64,000 nucleotides of DNA from Candidatus Woesebacteria bacterium (lineage in GTDB: Bacteria > Patescibacteriota > Microgenomatia > UBA1400 > PJMF01). The position numbers and the translations under genes are program-made. The notes beneath the pieces are model-generated. The model did not search any database and was not told where the DNA came from. It saw only the letters and a program-made list of their open reading frames with translations. Positions 11,881-63,272 of the stretch are shown piece after piece. Every line of letters starts with the position of its first letter. The stretch's first letter is position 1. Location: assembly GCA_017999345.1 (NCBI GenBank), contig JAGNLY010000001.1, positions 88,744 through 152,743 on the forward strand, given 5' to 3'.

Positions 11881-14800
11881 ATGTTAGCAAAACATAAGTT
11901 TTTCAGATTTTTGTTAGCTTTTTGGTTAATTATGTCGCAAGGCATAACAGCTTTGGCATCTGGTGAGCTTTCAAGCTACAGGTTGCCTTACTATGGACCA
12001 GCAGAGATGGTCTATGGAAGTTCATATCATTCAGGCCTTTCATTCCAAGCAAGAGATTTTGATATTGGAGTGGATACAGGTGTATATGCTGACGAGGAAG
12101 GATATGTACTATTTGCTGGCTGGCGAAATGATGGCTTTGGATATACTCTTGTGTTGATGCACGATGATGGTTACATGAGTCTGTTTGGACACTTATCTAG
12201 AGCCACATACGACCAAGGTGATACTGTCAATGATGAGGTCTTTTTTGCAGTAAGTGAAGGAGAAAATGTTGCTAAAGGACAATTGATTGCTTTTACTGGC
12301 AATTCTGGATCGAATGGCAGCCCAGCTCATCTGCATTATGAGGTTAGATACAATAATGATTTCAATGGACAGACACATCAACAAATTCAAGGAACTGCAT
12401 CGCTAAATAACTTTTGGTTGGCAGATCAGGCAGTGAGTCTTGACTCTATACCTGATTTAGATGCAAACAACTACTCAAATGATATGGTTGGTCCGCCTGT
12501 TTCAGATCCTGCATGCGGAGATAGGTCATATTCTGGCATAGATTTTTTTGATGATGAATATTGCCAGAATCAAAGCCTGTGGTATTCAAATTCCACGGGT
12601 TCACAAAGTGTTTCTGCACAAAATGTTGAATCAATTTTTGTTGGCTCAGGATGGTCCGCATACATTACTGATGGAGTCAATGTAGGCATTTGTGCAAACA
12701 GAAATCTATGGGATTTGGGAAAAGATTTTTACCCAAATGGCAGTAATATAAAACACAACATTGCATTTGTTCAGGTTTACAATGATTCTACTTGCAATGG
12801 TATGGTTGAGCCTTATAACCCAGATATATCTGCCAGTGGAGGTACTGGAGGCGGTGGAACTGCGAGTGGTTATGTAGAGATCTTCCAATCCACTAACTTT
12901 GGTGGAACAAAATTGGGAGACTACTCAATTGGTACTCACAGCTTTTCTGTAAATACCCTAATGTATTCTTTCAGAATGAAAGATGGGGCTAACAGTTTTG
13001 TTGTGAAGGACGACACTGGCAACAACCAATGCTTTGACTCAGATGTTTCGAATATGCAAGATAATTCAGATTTTTGGAACAAAACGGTTGAAGTTGAGGT
13101 TTTCACAAGCAATGTTTGTGGAAGCGTTAACGGTGAAGTTATAGTTTACAGCGCTACAAACTATACTGGAAATGTGGTAGGAACTTACACGGCAGGCAAT
13201 ACATACACCTTCCCTGTAAATACTCTCATGTTTTCTTTTGATACAAATGGCGCTGGTAGTTTTGTCGTAACTGCTCCTGATGGACGTCGTCAATGTTTTA
13301 ACTCTGACGTCCCAAACATGCAAGATTATTCTGAATACTGGAGAGAAACGATAAAACTTGAAGTAAATACGAACGACTACTGTCCTCCTGTTGGCAGTCC
13401 TGCTCCTGTAGTAGGGAGTGGGAATGGTCTTTGGAGAAATGAATTTAGAATCCTTTGGGAGGAAGTAGATATTCCAGATTTCACTTACATTGCCCCATTA
13501 TCTTGGGGTCCTGTAAACACAGTAACAAGAGAAGGTCACTCTAGAAGTGATCAATTTGGTATGCAGTTTGAAGGTTGTATAGAGCTTCCAGCTACTGATA
13601 CATATACTTTCTATCTTCTGTCTGACGATGGGAGTAGGCTGTACATTGATAATCAGCTGGTAGTTAATAATGATGGTCGACACTCTGCAACTGAAGTAAG
13701 TAGTTCTGTTGTCAAACAATCAGGACAATATGATTTCAAGGTTGATTACTATGAAGATGATGGTGGTGAAGAGCTGTTCTTACAAGTCTCGACACCAACA
13801 ATGACAAAACAACCTGTTCCTGATAGTTGGTATAGCTATGGCTTGGCCTGTACTGGTGTTCAAGTGGGAACCCCACTAAATACTTCCAGTTGGGCATATA
13901 GCCAAACCCTCACAATCGATTCAGATTTTGTGGGTGAAGATTTAATAAACTTTCCTGCGCTTCTGTCTGATGGAGTTTTCGTAGATGATGTTTACGTAAA
14001 CGCCTTGGATAATGGTGCAGATCTTAGATTTACTTCAGATGCTCTTGGAACTAATGAACTAGCTTTCGAAGTAGTGAGTTGGAACCAATCTGCCAAAACC
14101 AGTGAAGTTTGGGTCAATATACCCAGTGTGTCGGCTTCAGTCGATACATCAATATACGTTTGGTATGGCAATACATCTGCTGTGGCATATGCCAGTGGCG
14201 AAACGTATGGTAGCCAAAATGTGTGGGGTGACTACGCGTTGGTTATGCATATGAGCCAATATGGTAAAGCAAGTTTTGATTCAACCAGCAACTACAACAA
14301 TGCTCGGTCTACTATGAGCATTGCAAGTAATGTTGGAAAGGTGGGTTCGGCGTCTGATTTTGAGGCTGATGGTAGTCAATTTATGACCATTATGCCTAAT
14401 AACAATACGCTGGATTTACCGACTTACACTATTCAAGCATGGGCTTTCAACGAGTCCTTTGCTTATACATATCCATCGATTGTTAATAACAGAAGTGCAT
14501 CAAGTTCGAATGGTAACTATGTTGTTATGTTCCATGGTGATATCGGATACAAACCGCATTCACAACATTGGACGGGATCAGCATGGTCATCTGTTCCATG
14601 GGGAACTAGTGCTTCGCCACAAACTTGGTACATGGTTAACGCAGTATACGATGGTTCATTGCACAAAATGTCTGTTGATGGCGATTCTTTTGTCATTGGC
14701 AGCAGTCAAGTCGCACCACAGCTTAACGATAATCCAATCTTGATTGGCAACTATACGTCCAACTACTTTGATGGACTTATTGATGAGTTGCGCATGAGTG

Positions 14801-15882
14801 ATGTTGTGAGATCTCAAACATGGATCGAAACTGAGTATAATAATCAGTCAGATCCAGAAGTATTTTTTTCAGGAAGTGGTGTCTCAGGTGGTTCATCTAC
14901 TTGGGATTACAGTCAGACCTTGACGATTGATGCCAGTAAAGTTGTTGCTGATGCAATTAATTTTCCTGTGTTGATATCTGATGGAGTTTTAGCTGATCAC
15001 TTCTATAACAATTCCAATACCGACTGCACAGATCTTCGTTTCAGTAGCGATGCAGCAATGACCAACGAACTTCCTTTTGAGGTAGTGAGTTGTGATACTG
15101 TTGCAAAGACCGCTGAGATTTGGGTTAAAGTGCCGACTATATCAAGTAGCGTTAACACTGTGTTTTATGCTTGGTATGGAAATAGTTCGGCCACTGCATA
15201 TGTAGACACTGATATATATGGTGCTCAAAACGTGTGGAACGATTACGCGTTGGTTATGCATATGAATGAGGCAAGTGGGTCAAGATATGACTCAACTGCA
15301 AACAACAGTGTAGCTACGCCGACTGGTTCTATTATCAGTGGTGTTGGAAAAATTGGTTCTGGGGTAGATTTGGAATATAGTAGTTCTCAGTACCTAACAG
15401 TAACTCAGAACGCTGTCCTAGATCTGCCAACCTATACCATTCAGGCTTGGGCATTTAATGAGTCGTTTGCTTCTACGTATCCTACGATTATTAGTAATAG
15501 AAGTAACAGCGATTCAAATGGTAACTATTTTGTACTGTTCCATGGTGATATCGGATACAAACCGCATTCACAATACTGGACAGGATGGACTTGGTCATCC
15601 GTATACACGAATACTAGCTCATCAGCACAAACTTGGTATATGGTAAATGTCGTTTATGACGGAGCTAATCACAAAATCTCTGCAAATGCTGAGACATTCG
15701 TTTCAAGTGTAAAACCCGCTCCGCAACTAAATAACAATCCTATCCTAATTGGCAAGTACACCAATCACTATTTTGATGGGATTATTGATGAACTAAGAAT
15801 GTCGAGTGTAGTTCGCTCACAAGCTTGGATTGATACTGAGTATAACAACCAGTCCGATCCATCGTCATTCTTTGTTCCTTAG
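11881..15882 (+). CDS. Giant secreted multidomain protein. From the N-terminus: a signal peptide, an M23 (LytM-type) metallopeptidase domain, a PA14 domain, and two copies of a DUF2341 plus LamG-like jelly-roll module.
   Basis: AAGGAG ribosome-binding site upstream. M23 motifs are present (HDDGYMSLFGHL, GNSGSNGSPAHLHYEV). PA14 region: FGMQFEGCIELPATDTYTFYLLSDDGSRLYIDNQLVV...YYEDDGG. DUF2341-like regions: SQTLTID...NFPALLSDG...DLRF...WV..P..S......YYGN. LamG-type module endings: DELRMSDVVRSQTWIETEYNNQSDP. A terminator follows the gene. Confidence 0.85.
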   Translation: MLAKHKFFRFLLAFWLIMSQGITALASGELSSYRLPYYGPAEMVYGSSYHSGLSFQARDFDIGVDTGVYADEEGYVLFAGWRNDGFGYTLVLMHDDGYMSLFGHLSRATYDQGDTVNDEVFFAVSEGENVAKGQLIAFTGNSGSNGSPAHLHYEVRYNNDFNGQTHQQIQGTASLNNFWLADQAVSLDSIPDLDANNYSNDMVGPPVSDPACGDRSYSGIDFFDDEYCQNQSLWYSNSTGSQSVSAQNVESIFVGSGWSAYITDGVNVGICANRNLWDLGKDFYPNGSNIKHNIAFVQVYNDSTCNGMVEPYNPDISASGGTGGGGTASGYVEIFQSTNFGGTKLGDYSIGTHSFSVNTLMYSFRMKDGANSFVVKDDTGNNQCFDSDVSNMQDNSDFWNKTVEVEVFTSNVCGSVNGEVIVYSATNYTGNVVGTYTAGNTYTFPVNTLMFSFDTNGAGSFVVTAPDGRRQCFNSDVPNMQDYSEYWRETIKLEVNTNDYCPPVGSPAPVVGSGNGLWRNEFRILWEEVDIPDFTYIAPLSWGPVNTVTREGHSRSDQFGMQFEGCIELPATDTYTFYLLSDDGSRLYIDNQLVVNNDGRHSATEVSSSVVKQSGQYDFKVDYYEDDGGEELFLQVSTPTMTKQPVPDSWYSYGLACTGVQVGTPLNTSSWAYSQTLTIDSDFVGEDLINFPALLSDGVFVDDVYVNALDNGADLRFTSDALGTNELAFEVVSWNQSAKTSEVWVNIPSVSASVDTSIYVWYGNTSAVAYASGETYGSQNVWGDYALVMHMSQYGKASFDSTSNYNNARSTMSIASNVGKVGSASDFEADGSQFMTIMPNNNTLDLPTYTIQAWAFNESFAYTYPSIVNNRSASSSNGNYVVMFHGDIGYKPHSQHWTGSAWSSVPWGTSASPQTWYMVNAVYDGSLHKMSVDGDSFVIGSSQVAPQLNDNPILIGNYTSNYFDGLIDELRMSDVVRSQTWIETEYNNQSDPEVFFSGSGVSGGSSTWDYSQTLTIDASKVVADAINFPVLISDGVLADHFYNNSNTDCTDLRFSSDAAMTNELPFEVVSCDTVAKTAEIWVKVPTISSSVNTVFYAWYGNSSATAYVDTDIYGAQNVWNDYALVMHMNEASGSRYDSTANNSVATPTGSIISGVGKIGSGVDLEYSSSQYLTVTQNAVLDLPTYTIQAWAFNESFASTYPTIISNRSNSDSNGNYFVLFHGDIGYKPHSQYWTGWTWSSVYTNTSSSAQTWYMVNVVYDGANHKISANAETFVSSVKPAPQLNNNPILIGKYTNHYFDGIIDELRMSSVVRSQAWIDTEYNNQSDPSSFFVP

Positions 15883-37544: not shown

Positions 37545-38522
37545 CTACTTTAATTTTTCCCATTCATTAATATCCACCCGACCAAAATGTCCATTCTTAG
37601 CTAGGTCCAAATAAATTGGTCTTCTTAATCCAAATTGCTCAATGATTGCTGCCGGTCGACAGTCATAATCAAAACTTGTTTGAACACCATCAATGAGTGC
37701 TATTTTTATAAGTGGTTCAGCTTTGCCGATTACATAGCCAATTTTTACTAGAACTTCTTGAGCACCTGATTTTTTAAGTAGCTGCATGGCCACCCATCTA
37801 GCCATGTACGCGGCGCTTCGATCAACTTTAGTAGCATCTTTGCCAGAAAAAGCACCACCACCCACTGGGACTCTTGGACCATAAGCATCAACTACAATCT
37901 TTCGTCCGGTGCAGCCACTATCTGCAGTAAAGCCCCCAACTTCAAAGGCGCCGGTATAATTGGCAAATATTTTTTCTTGATCAATTTTAAGTCCGCACTT
38001 CGCTACATGATTTTTAAGTTGAGCTTGTGATTGTCCTTGAACAGACAAAACAACTGATGCTAACTTTCCATTTTCCAATGTGACCTGAGATTTGCCATCG
38101 ACATCAAATCCTTGTAATAATTTTCTAGCTAAAAACATTTCTTGAGGCATGTAAGCCTTATTTTCATTACAAGCATATCCAACCATAATTCCCTGATCAC
38201 CAGCCCCGCCAATATCAACACCTTGAGCTATTTCTGGTGATTGAGCAACTATATGAGATACAACATTAATATCTTGGCCAGTAATTTTTTTGTAGTATTC
38301 TTTGGTCACAGCCATATGATCAACTTTTCCTTTTGAGGTAACTTCGCCAAAATGAGCAAGATATCCATGACCGCCGGCTGTTTCAATTGCCACTCTAGAA
38401 TATGGATCCTGCTTTAAATATTTATCTAACAATAAATCTGAAATTTGGTCGCAAATTTTATCTACGTGTAGATAGGTAACAGACTCAGCAATTAATTGGG
38501 AATTTTTCATATTACCTTTCAT
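37545..38522 (-). CDS. metK: Methionine adenosyltransferase (S-adenosylmethionine synthetase)
   Basis: AESVTYLHVDKICDQISD (compare SESVSEGHPDKICDQISD), GAGDQGIMVGYA and GGGAFSGKDATKVDRSAAY. The protein is shorter than the E. coli enzyme. Confidence 0.9.
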   Translation of the reverse strand: MKGNMKNSQLIAESVTYLHVDKICDQISDLLLDKYLKQDPYSRVAIETAGGHGYLAHFGEVTSKGKVDHMAVTKEYYKKITGQDINVVSHIVAQSPEIAQGVDIGGAGDQGIMVGYACNENKAYMPQEMFLARKLLQGFDVDGKSQVTLENGKLASVVLSVQGQSQAQLKNHVAKCGLKIDQEKIFANYTGAFEVGGFTADSGCTGRKIVVDAYGPRVPVGGGAFSGKDATKVDRSAAYMARWVAMQLLKKSGAQEVLVKIGYVIGKAEPLIKIALIDGVQTSFDYDCRPAAIIEQFGLRRPIYLDLAKNGHFGRVDINEWEKLK

Positions 38523-38625
38523 CTATTTTGGTTGAAGCACCTTTTTGTATATAAATACTGAGGTTGCTGGTGGGTCATAGAGCCAAATCTCTCGCCACAC
38601 TCTTTATAAAAGAATAGAAATTATT
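38523..38625 (-). promoter_or_regulatory. SAM-I (S-box) riboswitch in the metK leader
   Basis: The minus-strand RNA reads UCUAUUC UUUUAUAAAGAGUGUGGCGAGAGAUUUGGCUCUAUGACCCACCAGCAACC ... AAAAAGGUGCUUCAACC AAAAUAGA UG. This matches the S-box consensus (UUAUCAAGAG.GG.GGAGGGA..GGCCC.AUGAA.CC.GCAACC ... GGUGCUAA.UCC) with P1 formed by UCUAUU/AAUAGA. The P1 3' strand abuts the start codon. Confidence 0.65.
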
Positions 38626-56453: not shown

Positions 56454-57794
56454 TTAATCAATAAAACTTAAGGCAACACCAGTTTTGTTTGCTCTACCTG
56501 TTCTACCAATTCTATGTATATAGTCTTCGTAAGTTTGTGGTAAATCAAAATTGATCACGTGAGTCACGTTGTCGATGTCTAAACCTCTAGAAGCAATGTC
56601 TGTTGCCAAAAGAACTTGAATAGCATCATTTTTGAATTGAGACAAAGCTCTTTGTCTTTGTGATTGGGATTTATTGCCATGAATTGCAGCAACTTTAACA
56701 CCTCTCTCAACTAATTTTTCAGACAATTTGTTTAAACCATGCTTTGTTCTGCCAAATACCAAAACTTTATCAAATCCATCTTTGTCTAAAAGTTCATGTA
56801 AGACATCAATTTTTGATCTTCCTTGAATTTTTATAATATCTTGGTTGACATTAACTGAAGCTTTTTGTTTTTCAATTTCAACTTTGATTGGATTGTATAA
56901 AAAGCTATTAACAACATCATTCATTTTAACTGGCAAAGTTGCTGAGAAAAATAAAGAATGTCTTTTTTCTGGTAAGTTTTGAATGACATATTTAATGTCA
57001 TTGATAAATCCCATGTCAAACATTTGGTCAACTTCATCTAAGACAATTGCTGAGAAGGTATCTAAACTAAATATTCCTCTTTTTTCTAAGTCAATTAATC
57101 TTCCTGGTGTGCCAATAATAAAGTGAGGCTGTCTTCTAAGTGAAGAGATTTGGCTACTCATGTTAGCGCCACCAATACAAAGTGAAGAATATATTCCCAT
57201 GCCTTCAGCAAACATTTTGAATTCTGCATTTATTTGAAGCGCAAGCTCTCTTGTTGGAGCCATAATGAGGACTCTTCCGAGTTTTTGAGTTTTATCTTCA
57301 ATAGTTTTGAAAATATTATTTATCAATGGAATTAGGAAGGCAGCAGTTTTTCCTGTGCCTGTACTTGCTAAACCCACAACATCTCTATTATCAAGAATAT
57401 GGTTAATTATTTGATCTTGAATCGGAGTAGGAGTGATATAGCCTCTTGATACAATGTTTTGCTTTAATGGTTCACAAATATCAAAATCGACAAAATTATT
57501 TTTTGATACGTATTCTTGTTTAACTACTGGATTAATTTGCAATGAAGCTGCGGCAGCTTGAATGATCATAGTAGGGTTGAAAGAACTTTGTTGTCTTCCT
57601 CTTCCACCTCTGCCACCAGAAAAGTTGCGATTTCCTCCATCAGAATTAGATCTAAAATTTCTATTACGATTGCCGTCACTATGGCTTCTGCCACCATTGC
57701 TACGGTTTCCACCATCGCTACTGCGGTTACTACCACCACGACTATCACGAGTATTATTTCCAAACTTTTGTCTGGAATTAGAAGAACGAAACAT
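56454..57794 (-). CDS. DEAD-box ATP-dependent RNA helicase with an N-terminal RG/RGG-rich low-complexity tail
   Basis: Q-motif region, LASTGTGKTAAF, a DEAD box (the DEVD variant), SAT and HRIGRTGRA. The tail runs GGSNRSSDGGNRSNGGRSHSDGNRNRNF.... Confidence 0.9.
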   Translation of the reverse strand: MFRSSNSRQKFGNNTRDSRGGSNRSSDGGNRSNGGRSHSDGNRNRNFRSNSDGGNRNFSGGRGGRGRQQSSFNPTMIIQAAAASLQINPVVKQEYVSKNNFVDFDICEPLKQNIVSRGYITPTPIQDQIINHILDNRDVVGLASTGTGKTAAFLIPLINNIFKTIEDKTQKLGRVLIMAPTRELALQINAEFKMFAEGMGIYSSLCIGGANMSSQISSLRRQPHFIIGTPGRLIDLEKRGIFSLDTFSAIVLDEVDQMFDMGFINDIKYVIQNLPEKRHSLFFSATLPVKMNDVVNSFLYNPIKVEIEKQKASVNVNQDIIKIQGRSKIDVLHELLDKDGFDKVLVFGRTKHGLNKLSEKLVERGVKVAAIHGNKSQSQRQRALSQFKNDAIQVLLATDIASRGLDIDNVTHVINFDLPQTYEDYIHRIGRTGRANKTGVALSFID

Positions 57795-58064
57795 ATTACT
57801 GCTTTCTTTGTCTTAACCTTGACGTATTTTATTTAAAGGTTAAAGACAAGAAGCGAATAAGGGAAATTGAAAATTGAAATTCAAAAATCTTTAGCTAGCT
57901 TAAACCCAGTGGTTATTTTTCTTAATTTAATTTAAGAAGGAGTTATTATAGCATATTATCACTGTAATATCAAGTTATCATTAGGCACTATTGAAATAAA
58001 GATGGTGATATTAGCTTAGACAATTGACATTATTGAAAATACAATTTAATCTTATTTAATCCAC

Positions 58065-59714
58065 ATGGTTAAAAAAATACTTATATTTCTAATAATATTT
58101 GCTAGTTCAACTAACAAAGTTTCTGCAACAAATTATTTTGTTTCACCAAGTGGCAACGATGCCAATGTAGGTTCTTCAGAATCTGCTCCATGGAGAACTA
58201 TCCGCAAAGCAACCTCAACTGTAGTGCCAGGTGATTCAGTGTATGTACATAATGGAACATATGCAGAGACAGTTGTCATTTCAAAGAGTGGCACATCAGC
58301 TGGAAGGATTACTTTTTCAGCATCTCCAAACGAGAACCCAATAATTGATGGAAGTGGCATGACAAGCATCGCAACAGATGGACTTGTGCAAATCAATGAC
58401 AATGTGAACCACATCACATTTAGTGGCTTTACAGTCAAAGGGTCCCCTAAAATGGGAATTGCCAACAGGGGCAGTAACAACATCGTCAATAGTAACAAAA
58501 TTTTACTCTCTTACGATTCAGCTATCTGGCATAGATTTGGAACAAATACAGTTTTTAGAAATAACGAAGTGTACTACAATGTCAGGATGTTCACGGTGTC
58601 GGCATCCGAGAACGGCATAGTCTGTAATGGTTCTGCGTCTTGGTGGCCAGCAACACTTAACTCTCAAAATTCTACAGGAGCATTATGGGAAGGCAATTAC
58701 GTCCATAACAACTGCGGTGAAGGAATAGTTGCTCACACTGGTGACAGGATAATCGGAAACAAGTTTCGCGATAACTGGAGTATCAATATCTATATCGACA
58801 ATGGAACTGGGGTACTAATAGATAGAAACTTCGTGTATGACACAGATTCGGTATTCAGCGTTTGGCCTGGAAACGGTCGCAATATACCAATAGGTATAGC
58901 CCTCGCCGATGAACAAACTCCGTGTAATACCTTTGACAATACAATTAGCAATAACATTATCGTTAACGCACGATTTGGAGTGAGTTTTTATCCTTATACT
59001 TCTTGCTCCGGTGTAATTAATACCAAAATTATTAATAATAGTTTTATCAATTCTTGGGAATATGGCATTAGGATTACTGGTTCTGCAGCTGCTAATTCAA
59101 AAAGCATCATCGCAAATAATATTTTTTCAACAAACAGAGGTAAATCTTTGATAATCGATAATTTGAAAGATTTCAAAATCCAAAATAATCTATGGTATTC
59201 TGGTAATACCAACTCAGCTGCCCAGTTTAAAATTGGCACAGCAGTCACTGATTTAGCAGGATTCAATGCTGCATTCCCAACTCAAATAAGCGGCAATATC
59301 TGGGCAGATCCACAATATTCTTCTAGTCTTCCAACAGATTTATCTCAATTAACCCCGTCAGTATTTTCTCTCAAAAATACATCTGTTGCGATTGATAAAG
59401 GTGCAGGTAGTGTTGCAGTAGCTGCTGATTTTATCGGCAAGTCTAGACCTCAGGGTGCTGCGATTGATTTGGGAGCATTTGAATATGGAGGTATAGGAGC
59501 AGCTGTTCCACCCCCATCGGCTACTCAATTAAATGCCGTTGCTTCTTCTCCAACCCCAACTCCAAAGCCATGGACAACTCTTACCACTGACTATGCTAAC
59601 TGGTTATCATATTATCTGCAGTCAGTTCGCGGCTTCGCAAAAGGTGACTTTAATGAGAATGGCAAGGTAGATGGAATCGATTATATGTTGTGGGTCAACA
59701 ATTATGGCAAATAA
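58065..59714 (+). CDS. Secreted right-handed parallel beta-helix (pectate-lyase-fold) repeat protein with a C-terminal dockerin-like segment
   Basis: Signal peptide, many NxxI/NNxG beta-helix rungs, and a C-terminal DFNENGKVDGIDYMLWVNNYG (a dockerin-type Ca-binding repeat). Confidence 0.7.
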   Translation: MVKKILIFLIIFASSTNKVSATNYFVSPSGNDANVGSSESAPWRTIRKATSTVVPGDSVYVHNGTYAETVVISKSGTSAGRITFSASPNENPIIDGSGMTSIATDGLVQINDNVNHITFSGFTVKGSPKMGIANRGSNNIVNSNKILLSYDSAIWHRFGTNTVFRNNEVYYNVRMFTVSASENGIVCNGSASWWPATLNSQNSTGALWEGNYVHNNCGEGIVAHTGDRIIGNKFRDNWSINIYIDNGTGVLIDRNFVYDTDSVFSVWPGNGRNIPIGIALADEQTPCNTFDNTISNNIIVNARFGVSFYPYTSCSGVINTKIINNSFINSWEYGIRITGSAAANSKSIIANNIFSTNRGKSLIIDNLKDFKIQNNLWYSGNTNSAAQFKIGTAVTDLAGFNAAFPTQISGNIWADPQYSSSLPTDLSQLTPSVFSLKNTSVAIDKGAGSVAVAADFIGKSRPQGAAIDLGAFEYGGIGAAVPPPSATQLNAVASSPTPTPKPWTTLTTDYANWLSYYLQSVRGFAKGDFNENGKVDGIDYMLWVNNYGK

Positions 59715-60621
59715 AAAAAGAAAAAAATCACTGTTTTCAGTCAGCAAATTTATATTGTTTGCAGGTCTTCTGATAATGGTTTCTATTACTTTGTACTTTG
59801 CAAATGTATTAGTGAATCGCAATCAAACTTTGAGTGTTGGAGCCACTGCCGGTGTAGCAGAACTATTTTTCGAGCCATCTTCACTAGTATTGTCACCAGA
59901 TGGTCTCGTAAATCTCTGGGTTACAACTGATAAGCAGCTTGGTTTTTTTGCAACTGATTTAACTTTTGATCCCTCCATCATCTCTTTGGCACAAGAAATA
60001 ACGCTCCCAACAACTGGGCTAGCCAAAAAAATTAGAGTCACTTCTATGTCAGAAGCAAATGCAACAGGCAAGATATCAATAGTATTGGGCGTAGAACCAT
60101 CAGCAATTTCGACCGCGCCAACCGGCACTTTTAAGATAGCAAATTTAAAATTCACCAAGAAATCTACGTTAGCTAACAAATCAACTTTATTATCTATCGT
60201 ACCGAGCGCTACTCAACTAGTCGATATGGGCGCCATCCCATTTAACTCATCAACAAAAAACGCCAGTTTCACGCTCAACCCAGTTGCATCAGCTACTCCG
60301 GCACCTCCCTCAACTTCCACAACTACTAATGGTGCTGGTCCTATAATTACAATTAAGTCGCCAGCTGAAAACTCTAAGATTCCACGTGGTGGCGTATGGG
60401 TTGGCTCTGTTGTTTCAGATCCAGATGGAGTTTCTCAAACTACATTCTATTTTGACGATGTTTTAATCAAGACTTGTCCGGCAAATCAATTAGAGTGCAA
60501 CTTTACCTACAGAAAAAGAACATCTTCAGGAAATCATGTAATTAGGGTCGAGGCAATTGACAATAGTCCAAGCAAAAATAAGTCTCAAACTATTATTAAT
60601 GTTGTCAAACAATCTAGGTAA
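59704..60621 (+). CDS. Membrane-anchored cohesin-like domain protein with a C-terminal Ig-like domain
   Basis: An N-terminal transmembrane anchor is followed by LWVTTDKQLGFFATDLTFDPSIISLAQEI, a cohesin-like pattern. The start ATG overlaps the upstream stop in ATGGCAAATAA. Confidence 0.55.
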   Translation: MANKKRKKSLFSVSKFILFAGLLIMVSITLYFANVLVNRNQTLSVGATAGVAELFFEPSSLVLSPDGLVNLWVTTDKQLGFFATDLTFDPSIISLAQEITLPTTGLAKKIRVTSMSEANATGKISIVLGVEPSAISTAPTGTFKIANLKFTKKSTLANKSTLLSIVPSATQLVDMGAIPFNSSTKNASFTLNPVASATPAPPSTSTTTNGAGPIITIKSPAENSKIPRGGVWVGSVVSDPDGVSQTTFYFDDVLIKTCPANQLECNFTYRKRTSSGNHVIRVEAIDNSPSKNKSQTIINVVKQSR

Positions 60622-61238: not shown

Positions 61239-63272
61239 ATGAAAATATCATTGAAATTTCTATCCTTTTTCCTTATTTGTTTAACCGTTTTGATTACACC
61301 AAGATCAATTTTCGCAAAATCATATTCTATTGATGCAGCAAAAATTGACGCCAGAATTTCAAAAGATGGCTCGATGAAAGTTGATGAAAGAAGAACATAT
61401 AATTTTTCAGGCGATTATTCATATGCTTATCAATATATTTATAAATTTCCTGACCAAACTAAGAGTCCAGGAAGGACTGCGCCATATTTACTTGGAGAGT
61501 TTAGTGTTTGCGAAATGGTGGATCTTAAGAAAAATTGTTACAAGCAAATAGATGAGCTTCAAGCAGACTACAATAATCCCAAAAATAATCCTAGCGAAAG
61601 TTTTTTTGTAATTGATGAGGGAACTAGATATTATCTTCAATGGAATTATCAAGCAGTTAATGAAAAAAAGGACTTTCAAGTTTCATATAACGTTACAAAT
61701 GCCGTTACGCTTCATGAAGATACAGCCGAGCTCTATTGGATTTTTGTTGGCTCTCAGTGGGAGTTGGCTCAGAATAATATTTTGGTAAATTTAAGTTTTT
61801 CAAATGACATTAAGGGACAAGATCTTCGAGCATGGGCACATGGTCCATTAGAGGGAAACGTTTCCATTTCTGAATCGGAAACTAAGCCGGTGGTTTCATT
61901 TAAGCTTTCTTCAATTTCAATCGGCGAAGCTTTGGAATCTAGAGTTTTAATGCCTAAAGAAAATTTTACTGATGGAGCAACAGGTAGTAGCTCTAAGCAA
62001 GAAATAATCAATCAAGAAGAAAAATTTATTACAGAAACGATTGGAGCAAGAAAAAAAGCGATATTTTTAAGAAATATTTTGAATGGTCTAATTTTATTGA
62101 TTTTTGTTTTAATAATTTTTAGATTTGTTAAACAGTTAAAATTATTTTTGAAATATGGCAAAGACACTCCTTTGCCAAAAGTTAATCAGTCGGGCACGCT
62201 TTGGGAACCACCAAGCAATATCGATCCAGCTCAAATTGAGCAATTAATTTCTGGCAACAAAACACTTACTCCAAACTCATTTACAGCTACGGTTTTATCT
62301 TTGGTGCAAGACAAGTATTTTAAATTCGTGAGAAGTGATAATAAAGAAGGATTATTTTCTAAGAATTATAAATATTATTTAGAGCCATATAATTCAAACA
62401 AACAATATTTTATTAAGCCAGAAAAACCATTGTCTTCAATTCAAGAAAATGTGATGAATTTCTTGGTAGAGAATATTGGATACAAAAATATTGAGGCTGA
62501 GGGCAAAGAAAGATCTGTAATCTCTTTAGAAAGTATTGTATCGTGGTCAAGAACACATCAGATAGCAAGTCAAACTTTTTTTAAATCATTGAAAGATATT
62601 GTCTTAAAAGAAAATTTAAGTGAAGGATTTTTTGATCGAAATTCTCATAAATCACAAAATCAAGCCAGTGGCGGCTTAATTATCTTTTTAGCAATTGTTG
62701 AATTTGCAATCTCATTTTTTATTGCGCCAACACTATTTACTTCAATTGGCAGTGACGTTTCATTTTCTTCAGTAATGGTTCTTAGTGGAATGGCTGGATT
62801 TTTCGGGTTCATATTGGGAATAATAGTTTTCATGTTTAAGGAATTTGGTGAACGAAGAACTCCAAGTGGTAGTAAAGAAACTGCTCAGTGGCTTGCATTT
62901 AAAAAGCACATGAAAAATTATAAAAAAACAGAAAAATATGAGATAGACTCAGTTATTTTGTGGGAAAAATATTTGGTCTACGGAACGCTGTTGGGAGTGT
63001 CATCCAAAGCATTGTCTCAGTTACCTATTAAGTTTAATGAAGCTGATGCGATGATTGCGTCGTCATATTGGGGAGGAAGAGCGCTTTCAACTAATGGATC
63101 TATTGATGGTATGAATGACATTACCTCAGCAATCGATAATGTAACAAGCGCAATATCTAGCGTTTCACAATCTGCAATGAGCAGCTATGGTGCTTCAGGA
63201 TCAGGTTCTTCCGGAGGCTTCTCAGGAGGTGGCGGCGGAGGAGGTGGCGGCGGAGGCGGCGGAGCAGGTTGA
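61239..63272 (+). CDS. DUF2207 domain membrane protein with a C-terminal poly-Gly tail
   Basis: Signal peptide, a DUF2207-type N-terminal domain, internal transmembrane helices, and a C-terminal GGFSGGGGGGGGGGGGGAG tail. Confidence 0.75.
   Translation: MKISLKFLSFFLICLTVLITPRSIFAKSYSIDAAKIDARISKDGSMKVDERRTYNFSGDYSYAYQYIYKFPDQTKSPGRTAPYLLGEFSVCEMVDLKKNCYKQIDELQADYNNPKNNPSESFFVIDEGTRYYLQWNYQAVNEKKDFQVSYNVTNAVTLHEDTAELYWIFVGSQWELAQNNILVNLSFSNDIKGQDLRAWAHGPLEGNVSISESETKPVVSFKLSSISIGEALESRVLMPKENFTDGATGSSSKQEIINQEEKFITETIGARKKAIFLRNILNGLILLIFVLIIFRFVKQLKLFLKYGKDTPLPKVNQSGTLWEPPSNIDPAQIEQLISGNKTLTPNSFTATVLSLVQDKYFKFVRSDNKEGLFSKNYKYYLEPYNSNKQYFIKPEKPLSSIQENVMNFLVENIGYKNIEAEGKERSVISLESIVSWSRTHQIASQTFFKSLKDIVLKENLSEGFFDRNSHKSQNQASGGLIIFLAIVEFAISFFIAPTLFTSIGSDVSFSSVMVLSGMAGFFGFILGIIVFMFKEFGERRTPSGSKETAQWLAFKKHMKNYKKTEKYEIDSVILWEKYLVYGTLLGVSSKALSQLPIKFNEADAMIASSYWGGRALSTNGSIDGMNDITSAIDNVTSAISSVSQSAMSSYGASGSGSSGGFSGGGGGGGGGGGGGAG

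Follow-up and report, generated by a model that had tools for sequence, protein, structure and literature searches.

Two overlapping genes of a Candidatus Woesebacteria bacterium that probably encode a non-cellulosomal cohesin-dockerin pair for retention of an enzyme at the cell envelope

We analyzed a 64-kb stretch of contig JAGNLY010000001.1 from a Candidatus Woesebacteria bacterium, called hereafter the window, whose content in guanine and cytosine (GC) ranges from 29 to 40%. Two adjacent genes, named here A and B, were examined as a possible cohesin-dockerin pair. An initial annotation had described A as coding for a secreted beta-helix protein of 549 amino acids (aa) with a dockerin-like calcium-binding repeat at its end, and B as a gene overlapping the stop codon of A and coding for a cohesin-like domain followed by an immunoglobulin (Ig)-like domain. 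This description is confirmed by the open reading frames (ORFs), a Pfam Beta_helix match of 6.6e-12 and the C-terminal sequence GDFNENGKVDGIDYMLWVNNYGK for A, by an overlap of 11 nucleotides (nt) reading ATGGCAAATAA, and by cohesin fold matches together with a Big_7 match of 3.9e-8 for B. The reduced genome that it supposed is also found: both proteins are identical to the public records MBP7700594.1 and MBP7700595.1 of Candidatus Woesebacteria, which belong to the Candidate Phyla Radiation (CPR). The features of the locus are the following.

58017..58045, plus strand: promoter-like site TAGACA-17-TACAAT, candidate promoter of A and B (consensus scan, 10/12 matches; a pattern match only).
58065..59714, plus strand: gene A, 549-aa ORF, public record MBP7700594.1, annotated "right-handed parallel beta-helix repeat-containing protein".
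58065..58127, plus strand: putative signal peptide of A, MVKKILIFLIIFASSTNKVSA, aa 1-21 (read from the sequence: KK n-region, hydrophobic core and VSA↓T cleavage-type motif).
58128..59354, plus strand: right-handed parallel beta-helix catalytic region of A, PL9/GH120-like, about aa 22-430 (Pfam, NCBIfam).
59364..59486, plus strand: choice-of-anchor Q domain of A, aa 434-474 (NCBIfam NF041518, 39.6 bits for a cut-off of 25).
59553..59711, plus strand: predicted dockerin module of A, aa 497-549 (sub-threshold Dockerin_1 match, two-repeat alignment, AlphaFold2 model and fold matches).
P498-D509 of A, plus strand: degenerate first loop of the dockerin, PTPKPWTTLTTD, in which only the Asp of position 12 is kept.
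59646-59681, plus strand: intact second calcium loop of the dockerin, DFNENGKVDGID, D528-D539, with ligand positions 1, 3, 5, 9 and 12 all present.
59704..59714, plus strand: A/B overlap, 11 nt, the start codon of B lying within the last codons and the stop of A (YGK and stop in A, MAN in B).
59704..60621, plus strand: gene B, 305-aa ORF, public record MBP7700595.1, annotated "hypothetical protein".
59749..59817, plus strand: predicted N-terminal transmembrane signal-anchor of B, about aa 16-38 (read from the sequence, with a KKRKK cytoplasmic tail ahead).
59830..60282, plus strand: predicted cohesin domain of B, aa 43-193, containing LWVTTDKQLGFFATDLTFDPSIISLAQEITLP (AlphaFold2 model and Foldseek).
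60340..60609, plus strand: Big_7 Ig-like domain of B, aa 213-302 (Pfam match over aa 213-282; AlphaFold2 strands over aa 214-302).

The start of B was placed at the ATG of position 59704 because all nine homologues of B begin with MA(N/T/S) at this later ATG, and a longer ORF starting at 59671 (MESIICCGSTIMANK...) was discarded on the same ground. Both neighbours of the two genes lie on the minus strand, a DEAD-box helicase gene being divergent upstream and a peroxiredoxin gene convergent downstream. Since the flanking genes are on the opposite strand and a single promoter-like site is observed upstream, A and B appear as an isolated bicistron, where a single cohesin gene adjoins a single gene for a dockerin enzyme within one transcription unit. 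The stop-start overlap suggests that their translation is coupled and, consequently, that both proteins are synthesized in a ratio close to 1:1.

Protein A is a predicted secreted glycan-active enzyme of the PL9-like beta-helix type, either a polysaccharide lyase or a hydrolase, as judged from its Pfam and NCBIfam matches and from the nearest proteins of solved structure. By inspection, it begins with a putative Sec-type signal peptide, followed in order by the catalytic beta-helix, the choice-of-anchor Q domain, a linker rich in proline and threonine and a module of about 53 aa at the extreme C-terminus, which thus ends a secreted enzyme behind a linker, as a dockerin does. In addition to Beta_helix, Pfam reports DUF1565 (8e-5). 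In NCBIfam, A matches PelN, a PL9 pectate lyase family, with an E-value of 2e-11, yet with 43 bits for a cut-off of 740. The sequence matches in the PDB, namely the GH120 xylosidase 3vst (7e-6) and the rhamnogalacturonan lyase 5olq (6e-4), cover the N-terminal cap only, and a Pel9A-like_beta_helix domain is present in homologues of A. Neither A nor B matched GH5, GH9, GH48 or CBM3 in the Pfam and NCBIfam scans.

We then considered the C-terminal module of A in the light of the organization of dockerins, in which an EF-hand-like calcium loop and a helix making together about 22 residues occur twice. Both helices (YANWLSYYLQ and, at the end, YMLWVNNY) and the second loop are present in A, and PTPKPWTTLTTD stands in place of the first loop. 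The single repeat noticed in the initial annotation is therefore the intact second one, but the first segment is not absent: it has kept its place and lost its calcium ligands. An alignment with 20 canonical dockerins of two repeats shows a match over the full length of the module. Relatives of the module, found in related loci (designated by L numbers), have retained both calcium loops in L002, L006, L008, L013, L017 and L020. Two forms can be written, a one-loop form as in the window, PKPWTTLxxDYxxWLSHYLQSVxGFxxGDFSENGxVDGIDYMLWVNNYGK, and a two-loop form, GDANxxxxVDExDFxIWKTNFL...GDFDNNxKVDGxDYMLWLNNYGK. The homologous module of L006 scores 28.3 bits with the Pfam profile Dockerin_1 (PF00404), above its gathering threshold and over profile positions 1-50, and that of L008 scores 18.8 bits. 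A profile of the module, compared with the PDB sequences, gave dockerin chains for 8 of its 12 matches, all with non-significant E-values, and a word-index search with the 54-aa module alone found nothing. The AlphaFold2 model of the module displays two helices with a mean predicted local distance difference test (pLDDT) of 80, and its 12 Foldseek matches in the PDB are all dockerins or dockerin-containing chains, the best one being 2y3n_B with a root-mean-square deviation (rmsd) of 1.4 A over 42 columns and an E-value of 0.097.

The calcium-loop motif occurs once in the six frames of the window. Chance is excluded not by this motif alone, but by the conservation of the module of about 53 aa at the C-termini of unrelated enzymes in every related locus. 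Altogether, alignments and model indicate that the tail of A is a divergent dockerin. Because a single calcium-binding loop would be functional, this dockerin is asymmetric and probably has a single binding mode. Regular expressions and three hidden Markov models run over the six frames of the window gave no further dockerin or cohesin, so that it holds exactly one of each.

Concerning B, the model was built from a nine-sequence alignment and has a pLDDT of 81.9, mostly above 90 in the cohesin domain (aa 50-195). The domain is a beta-sandwich of about 140-150 aa, the size and fold expected from a cohesin. The 50 best Foldseek matches of B in the PDB are almost exclusively cohesins of types I, II and III as well as non-cellulosomal ones, with E-values down to 1e-10, template-modelling (TM) scores on the target of 0.72-0.79 and rmsd values of 2.7-3.7 A over about 150 columns. 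The top match is 2w1n, the cohesin and FN3 modules of Clostridium perfringens GH84C. The CaCohA2 structure 6kge_A also superimposes well (E 1e-10, TM 0.77, rmsd 3.0 A), and the matches further comprise 1aoh (CipA of C. thermocellum), 2vn5 (C. cellulolyticum), 4uyp (ScaC), 2xdh (a non-cellulosomal cohesin of A. fulgidus) and the cohesins of OlpC (4dh2) and OlpA (3ul4). A generic Ig fold for this domain was rejected because the matches are almost exclusively cohesins. A linker of low confidence in the model (aa 194-212) separates the cohesin from the Big_7 domain, whose region shows a weak similarity to the Fn3-like modules of CbhA (3pdd, 3pe9). The cohesin would adjoin the membrane, the Ig domain being distal. 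On this basis, the 150-aa domain of B is a cohesin by its predicted fold.

One could argue that the resemblance is superficial, A ending in an unrelated EF-hand-like loop and B carrying a generic Ig or beta-sandwich domain. This would account for the window proteins falling below the Pfam gathering thresholds of both families and for the cohesin profile having no sequence match in the PDB. We consider this highly improbable and already largely refuted. The structural comparisons, which had been proposed as a check in the initial annotation, turned out in favor of the two assignments, the fold matches being specific to cohesins for B, and not of generic Ig type, and to dockerins in 12 cases out of 12 for the C-terminal module. 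Moreover, two-repeat dockerins can be aligned with the entire module, and homologues provide above-threshold Pfam matches transitively. The profile searches, proposed as another check, gave a divided answer, since the window proteins themselves stay below the thresholds and their homologues pass them (28.3 bits in L006 and 27.4 bits in the family member P0135, P numbers designating related proteins).

The N-terminus of B displays a hydrophobic segment of about 22 residues after a basic extremity, which the model folds as one long helix (aa 13-44). From the positive-inside rule, we infer that B is oriented with its N-terminus in the cytoplasm. It was observed that M25, Y31, F32, N34 and L36 of the anchor region (aa 1-38, 59704-59817) are invariant across nine close homologues, which exceeds the needs of a passive anchor and may denote a membrane partner. 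On the other hand, this segment could be a cleaved signal peptide, in which case B would be soluble, A and B would be secreted as a heterodimer, and Big_7 might target a substrate or a host surface. Behind the hydrophobic segment indeed stands a motif of small residues, SVGA↓TAG, whose conserved form is S.GA[AS].G, no SLH, LPXTG or other wall-binding module was found in B by the Pfam scan, and a cell-free analogue exists in ClcC, which has no cell anchor (PMC13487519). However, a stretch of about 22 hydrophobic residues with a strongly basic tail looks like a signal-anchor and unlike cleaved Sec signals, the modelled helix is continuous from aa 13 to aa 44, and the five invariant residues would be unusual in a signal peptide that is discarded. 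We hold a soluble B to be very unlikely, and an uncleaved anchor is retained in what follows.

The strongest evidence for the pairing of A and B is their genomic linkage. All nine close homologues of B (9/9) lie directly downstream of a gene ending in the dockerin module, and this module is carried by at least six types of mutually unrelated cargo, listed below.

Window, L004 and L006: PL9-like beta-helix protein.
L002: beta-helix protein of a second type.
L003: 314-aa protein with no family.
L005, 330-1904 and 3002-4573: two DUF4832 proteins flanking the anchor.
L007 and L008: PL1-like pectate lyase.
L009: 452-aa protein with no family.

A search for further dockerin-bearing proteins, also proposed as a check in the initial annotation, gave none within the 64 kb of the window, and in related loci the same module is found on these cargo types, in each case beside the anchor gene. 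One of the two DUF4832 paralogues of L005 has a different dockerin-like tail, GDLNLDNEVNLLDYNLLVAGYGTKYTIFDYNSIVSNYGKQ, which is also seen on P0012, a homologue of A with 51% identity. In the more distant loci L012, L013 (a complete Woesebacteria chromosome), L017, L018 and L020, whose cohesins are 33-51% identical to that of the window, a dockerin-ending gene is found upstream too. L012 (77-2882) even has two dockerin genes, in tandem and overlapping, for one anchor with a single cohesin. The window has its overlap of 11 nt in common with 10 other distinct loci (L002-4, L006-9, L012, L017 and L020), and the two genes are separated by a gap of 1-5 nt in two others. Synteny is therefore conserved while the cargo is swapped.

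A complementarity also appears between dockerins in trans and in cis. Anchors without a dockerin of their own have a dockerin-ending gene upstream in 13 of 14 distinct loci, and no such neighbour was seen in any of the 7 loci (0/7) where the anchor has a C-terminal dockerin of its own (Fisher p = 7e-5, not corrected for phylogeny). In addition, the pairwise identities of dockerins and cohesins correlate despite the differing cargos (Mantel r 0.52, p 0.02).

Alternatively, the two modules could be homologous to dockerins and cohesins without being mutual partners, and their adjacency could reflect a mere co-regulation of envelope proteins. The dockerin of A would then bind another cohesin, a cell-wall polymer or a host surface, and the cohesin of B another ligand. 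Supporting this idea, some homologues of A bear a dockerin but have no anchor gene next to them, and the single cohesin of L012 and that of L005 are each accompanied by two dockerin enzymes. Other pairings do exist in these organisms, since many family members combine both modules in the same polypeptide. Nevertheless, the cis/trans complementarity can hardly be explained unless the two modules have a direct relationship, and the same applies, for non-partners, to a dockerin-anchor junction whose 11-nt overlap is retained while the cargos change. The window, moreover, offers only one cohesin and one dockerin. A lack of partnership thus seems quite unlikely to us.

We therefore propose, as the probable interpretation, that A and B form a bicistronic and probably translationally coupled, non-cellulosomal cohesin-dockerin pair that holds an enzyme at the cell envelope in a CPR genome. 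The structure of the genes, the domain homologies and folds, and the synteny with its swapped cargos are observed, and the physical binding of A to B, presumably dependent on calcium, is inferred from the genomic association. In such a mechanism, A would be exported by Sec and B would be kept in the cytoplasmic membrane by its uncleaved N-terminal signal-anchor. The dockerin of A, with one functional calcium loop and a single binding mode, would plug into the single cohesin of B. The outcome would be a 1:1 complex of enzyme and anchor, so that the glycan-active enzyme would be retained at the envelope and not lost to the medium. The locus would behave as a cassette where anchor and dockerin are constant across relatives and the catalytic part is swapped. 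As the set of cargos looks degradative, enzyme A may serve to forage external or host glycans.

Several observations weigh against this proposal. The first calcium loop of A is devoid of four of the five ligand positions, we are not aware of any tested dockerin with precisely this one-loop constitution, and the module of A might be non-functional or bind differently. Its Dockerin_1 score is 14.3 bits for a gathering threshold of 22.9 (E 0.048), over aa 526-545 and profile positions 1-20. The Foldseek E-values are weak for a dockerin query of 60 residues, and the model of this module is biased to the dockerin fold because its input alignment was assembled with canonical dockerins. As for B, Pfam Cohesin (PF00963) gave no match even at E <= 10 and the cohesin-domain profile gave none among the PDB sequences; the search in the PDB being empty, the cohesin assignment rests on the fold and on transitive Pfam matches. 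At the level of the genes, no clear Shine-Dalgarno sequence is evident ahead of the ATG of B. The locus L014 is an exception, with an anchor that lacks its own dockerin and has no dockerin gene upstream, and the dockerin-bearing beta-helix homologues P0014 and P0011 are encoded in contexts without an adjacent anchor. Finally, the loci come from related lineages, so that the synteny counts are not phylogenetically independent, and the Mantel correlation brings a modest support which shared descent alone may explain.

Downstream of the anchor, related loci differ. The following gene codes for a giant fusion of GT2 and GT4 glycosyltransferase domains, of 1300-1500 aa or more, in L002 (3415-7401, with an additional flippase-like Polysacc_synt domain), L004 (2908-7464) and L005 (4673-8997), and it has a glycosyltransferase-like start in L007 (2688-3827). 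In L003 (2188-7962), L012 (3845-6442) and L008 (1836-7678), a giant SpaA-like surface protein of the isopeptide or pilin type is found downstream, followed by a sortase in L003. The glycosyltransferase neighbours of the four loci concerned hint at a link between the tether and the synthesis of an envelope polysaccharide. On this basis, one would also wonder whether the A-B complex does form but processes the cell's own envelope or exopolysaccharide beside a synthase or an export machine, by analogy with enzymes of exopolysaccharide operons such as those of the AlgL, PslG or BcsZ type. In the model of B, there is almost no spacer between the transmembrane helix and the cohesin, and a docked enzyme would therefore sit at the membrane face, which would fit such a role, as would the fusions with flippase-like features and a LytR_cpsA_psr gene located 2.7 kb downstream in the window. 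However, the pair of the window is not flanked by a glycosyltransferase gene, its neighbours coding for the helicase, the peroxiredoxin and a DUF2207 protein. Some relatives are followed instead by the SpaA-like proteins and a sortase, and the diversity of cargos (PL9-like, PL1-like, DUF4832) looks more degradative. We regard this role as unlikely.

The cohesin of B is not isolated. Its profile, searched against 1.84 billion representatives, retrieved 573 proteins at E <= 1e-3, these being representatives of clusters at 50% identity, and 455 at E <= 1e-10. Wherever a member has a named source, this source is among the Microgenomates, namely Ca. Woesebacteria, Ca. Gottesmanbacteria and Ca. Shapirobacteria, and those that are annotated are labelled "hypothetical" or merely "dockerin domain-containing". 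Among 141 members scanned with Pfam, Cohesin was found in 10 (best 2.3e-11), Dockerin_1 in 21 and Big_7 in 22. In P0135, the Cohesin match (aa 56-152, 27.4 bits for a gathering threshold of 24.1) lies inside the match of our profile (aa 34-174), and this overlap provides a sequence link between the family and Pfam Cohesin. In the best-scoring members, whose N-termini were inspected, a hydrophobic anchor directly precedes the cohesin.

Two or three cohesins are found behind an N-terminal anchor in 12 of 158 members, some of which also have a C-terminal dockerin. These members, to which P0111 (645 aa), P0118 (569 aa), P0130, P0112, P0134, P0135, P0143 and P0151 belong, look like membrane-anchored mini-scaffoldins in CPR metagenomes. 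Dockerin motifs terminate the protein itself in 32 of the 158 (identifiers from P0102-P0250). The anchors with a dockerin in cis bear a two-repeat dockerin at their own C-terminus in 7 distinct loci (among L015, L016, L019 and L021-L029) and could self-associate into chains or a lattice. A tentative hypothesis, to which we attach less than even confidence, would thus be that Microgenomates possess a large family of cohesins with a membrane anchor, so far without annotation and comprising 573 or more clusters at 50% identity, that acts as a modular plug-in display, with the dockerin provided in trans or in cis. In trans, it would come from the overlapping upstream gene, with a catalytic part freely exchanged at a fixed locus; in cis, it would be on the anchor, and these forms as well as those with two or three cohesins could link up as mini-scaffoldins or as a lattice at the surface. 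If so, this display system could arm wall-limited, host-dependent cells for glycan scavenging or host attachment.

A parallel can be drawn with known cohesin-dockerin systems. The initial annotation had called the pair cellulosome-like, which holds for the principle of tethering but not for the composition, as scaffoldin array, cellulase, CBM3, SLH and sortase anchor are all missing. A multi-cohesin scaffoldin is absent, since B has a single cohesin and the whole window contains no more than one cohesin and one dockerin. Instead of a cellulase or hemicellulase accompanied by a carbohydrate-binding module (CBM), the pair has a PL9-like beta-helix as its cargo, and attachment would be ensured by an N-terminal transmembrane helix in place of SLH modules or a sortase. 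The A-B pair is consequently not a cellulosome.

The closest system in its logic seems to be ClcC/ClcD of Cellulosilyticum lentocellum, where adjacent and co-transcribed genes coding for a single-cohesin and a single-dockerin protein were shown experimentally in 2026 to give a heterodimer (PMC13487519), and which offers by analogy an experimental precedent for the adjacent pair described here. In both cases one cohesin gene adjoins one dockerin-enzyme gene, the dockerin is asymmetric with a single predicted binding mode, and a cohesin of divergent phylogenetic position is linked to an Ig-like module. Nevertheless, the cargo of ClcD is a GH5 cellulase, whereas A has a PL9-like cargo, replaced by other enzymes in relatives, and belongs to a CPR host. 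ClcC contains a CBM3 and an X2 module and no cell anchor, whereas B has an N-terminal transmembrane anchor, a distal Big_7 domain and no CBM. About 40 bp separate the genes clcC and clcD, each of which has its own ribosome-binding site, whereas A and B overlap by 11 nt. Only the recognition pair is lost in ClcD, whereas the first calcium loop of A is lost as such. Also unlike ClcC/ClcD, the overlap is kept here across divergent lineages, with cargo swapping at a fixed junction and the cis/trans complementarity.

More generally, the A-B pair belongs with the non-cellulosomal cohesin and dockerin modules, which are single or few and occur in organisms without a cellulosome (Peer et al. 2009, FEMS Microbiol Lett 291:1, cited in PMC6487960). 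Foldseek matched B to two of their representatives, 2xdh from Archaeoglobus fulgidus and 2w1n from Clostridium perfringens GH84C, and GH84C shares with B an architecture of cohesin and Ig/FN3 modules. These modules are recognized by standard profiles, unlike A and B of the window. To our knowledge, they have not been described as a conserved cassette of two overlapping genes with an N-terminal transmembrane anchor. A comparison can also be made with the anchoring scaffoldins OlpA/OlpC, SdbA and OlpB of C. thermocellum, since in both systems a cell-bound protein with one or few cohesins would capture a dockerin partner at the surface. However, anchoring scaffoldins use SLH modules or sortase motifs for attachment to the wall and serve a multi-cohesin scaffoldin or cellulases, while B would hold a single enzyme directly at the membrane through its helix, without cellulase or CBM. 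Searches of the literature on cohesins or dockerins in CPR, Patescibacteria or Microgenomates provided generic counts of carbohydrate-active enzymes only, with neither a CPR example of such non-cellulosomal modules nor any account of this cassette.

CPR bacteria have tiny genomes and cell surfaces that are largely uncharacterized, and the way they retain enzymes and contact their hosts is little understood. The cassette would offer a concrete mechanism for the retention of glycan-active enzymes at these surfaces. While the tethering principle is familiar, the novelty lies in a large, unannotated and cleanly organized family in organisms of poorly understood surface biology. Because the cohesin is so divergent that it is annotated as "hypothetical protein", surveys relying on Pfam or dbCAN will report too few cohesins for these phyla. 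The one-loop dockerin, the single cohesin with its transmembrane anchor and the cis/trans complementarity constitute ready comparisons for studies of cohesin-dockerin specificity, and pairs of the A-B type may supply small orthogonal pairs for protein engineering.

Other observations were made in the window. In the DEAD-box helicase (56454-57794, minus strand), about 100 aa at the N-terminus form a low-complexity tail enriched in R, G, S and N, and gene calling splits the corresponding gene of the near-identical contig L001 in two. The DUF2207 membrane protein (61239-63272, plus strand) ends with a long Gly/Ser run, …GGFSGGGGGGGGGGGGGAG. Farther away, the gene at 11881-15882 (plus strand), situated in a stretch of raised GC content (0.40 against about 0.33), codes for a 1333-aa protein with Peptidase_M23, PA14, DUF2341 and Laminin_G_3 domains, which may be a large secreted protein of the peptidoglycan-hydrolase and lectin type. 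Finally, the sole Rfam match at gathering level in the window is an S-adenosylmethionine (SAM) riboswitch, RF00162, at 38516-38612 on the minus strand (48.8 bits).

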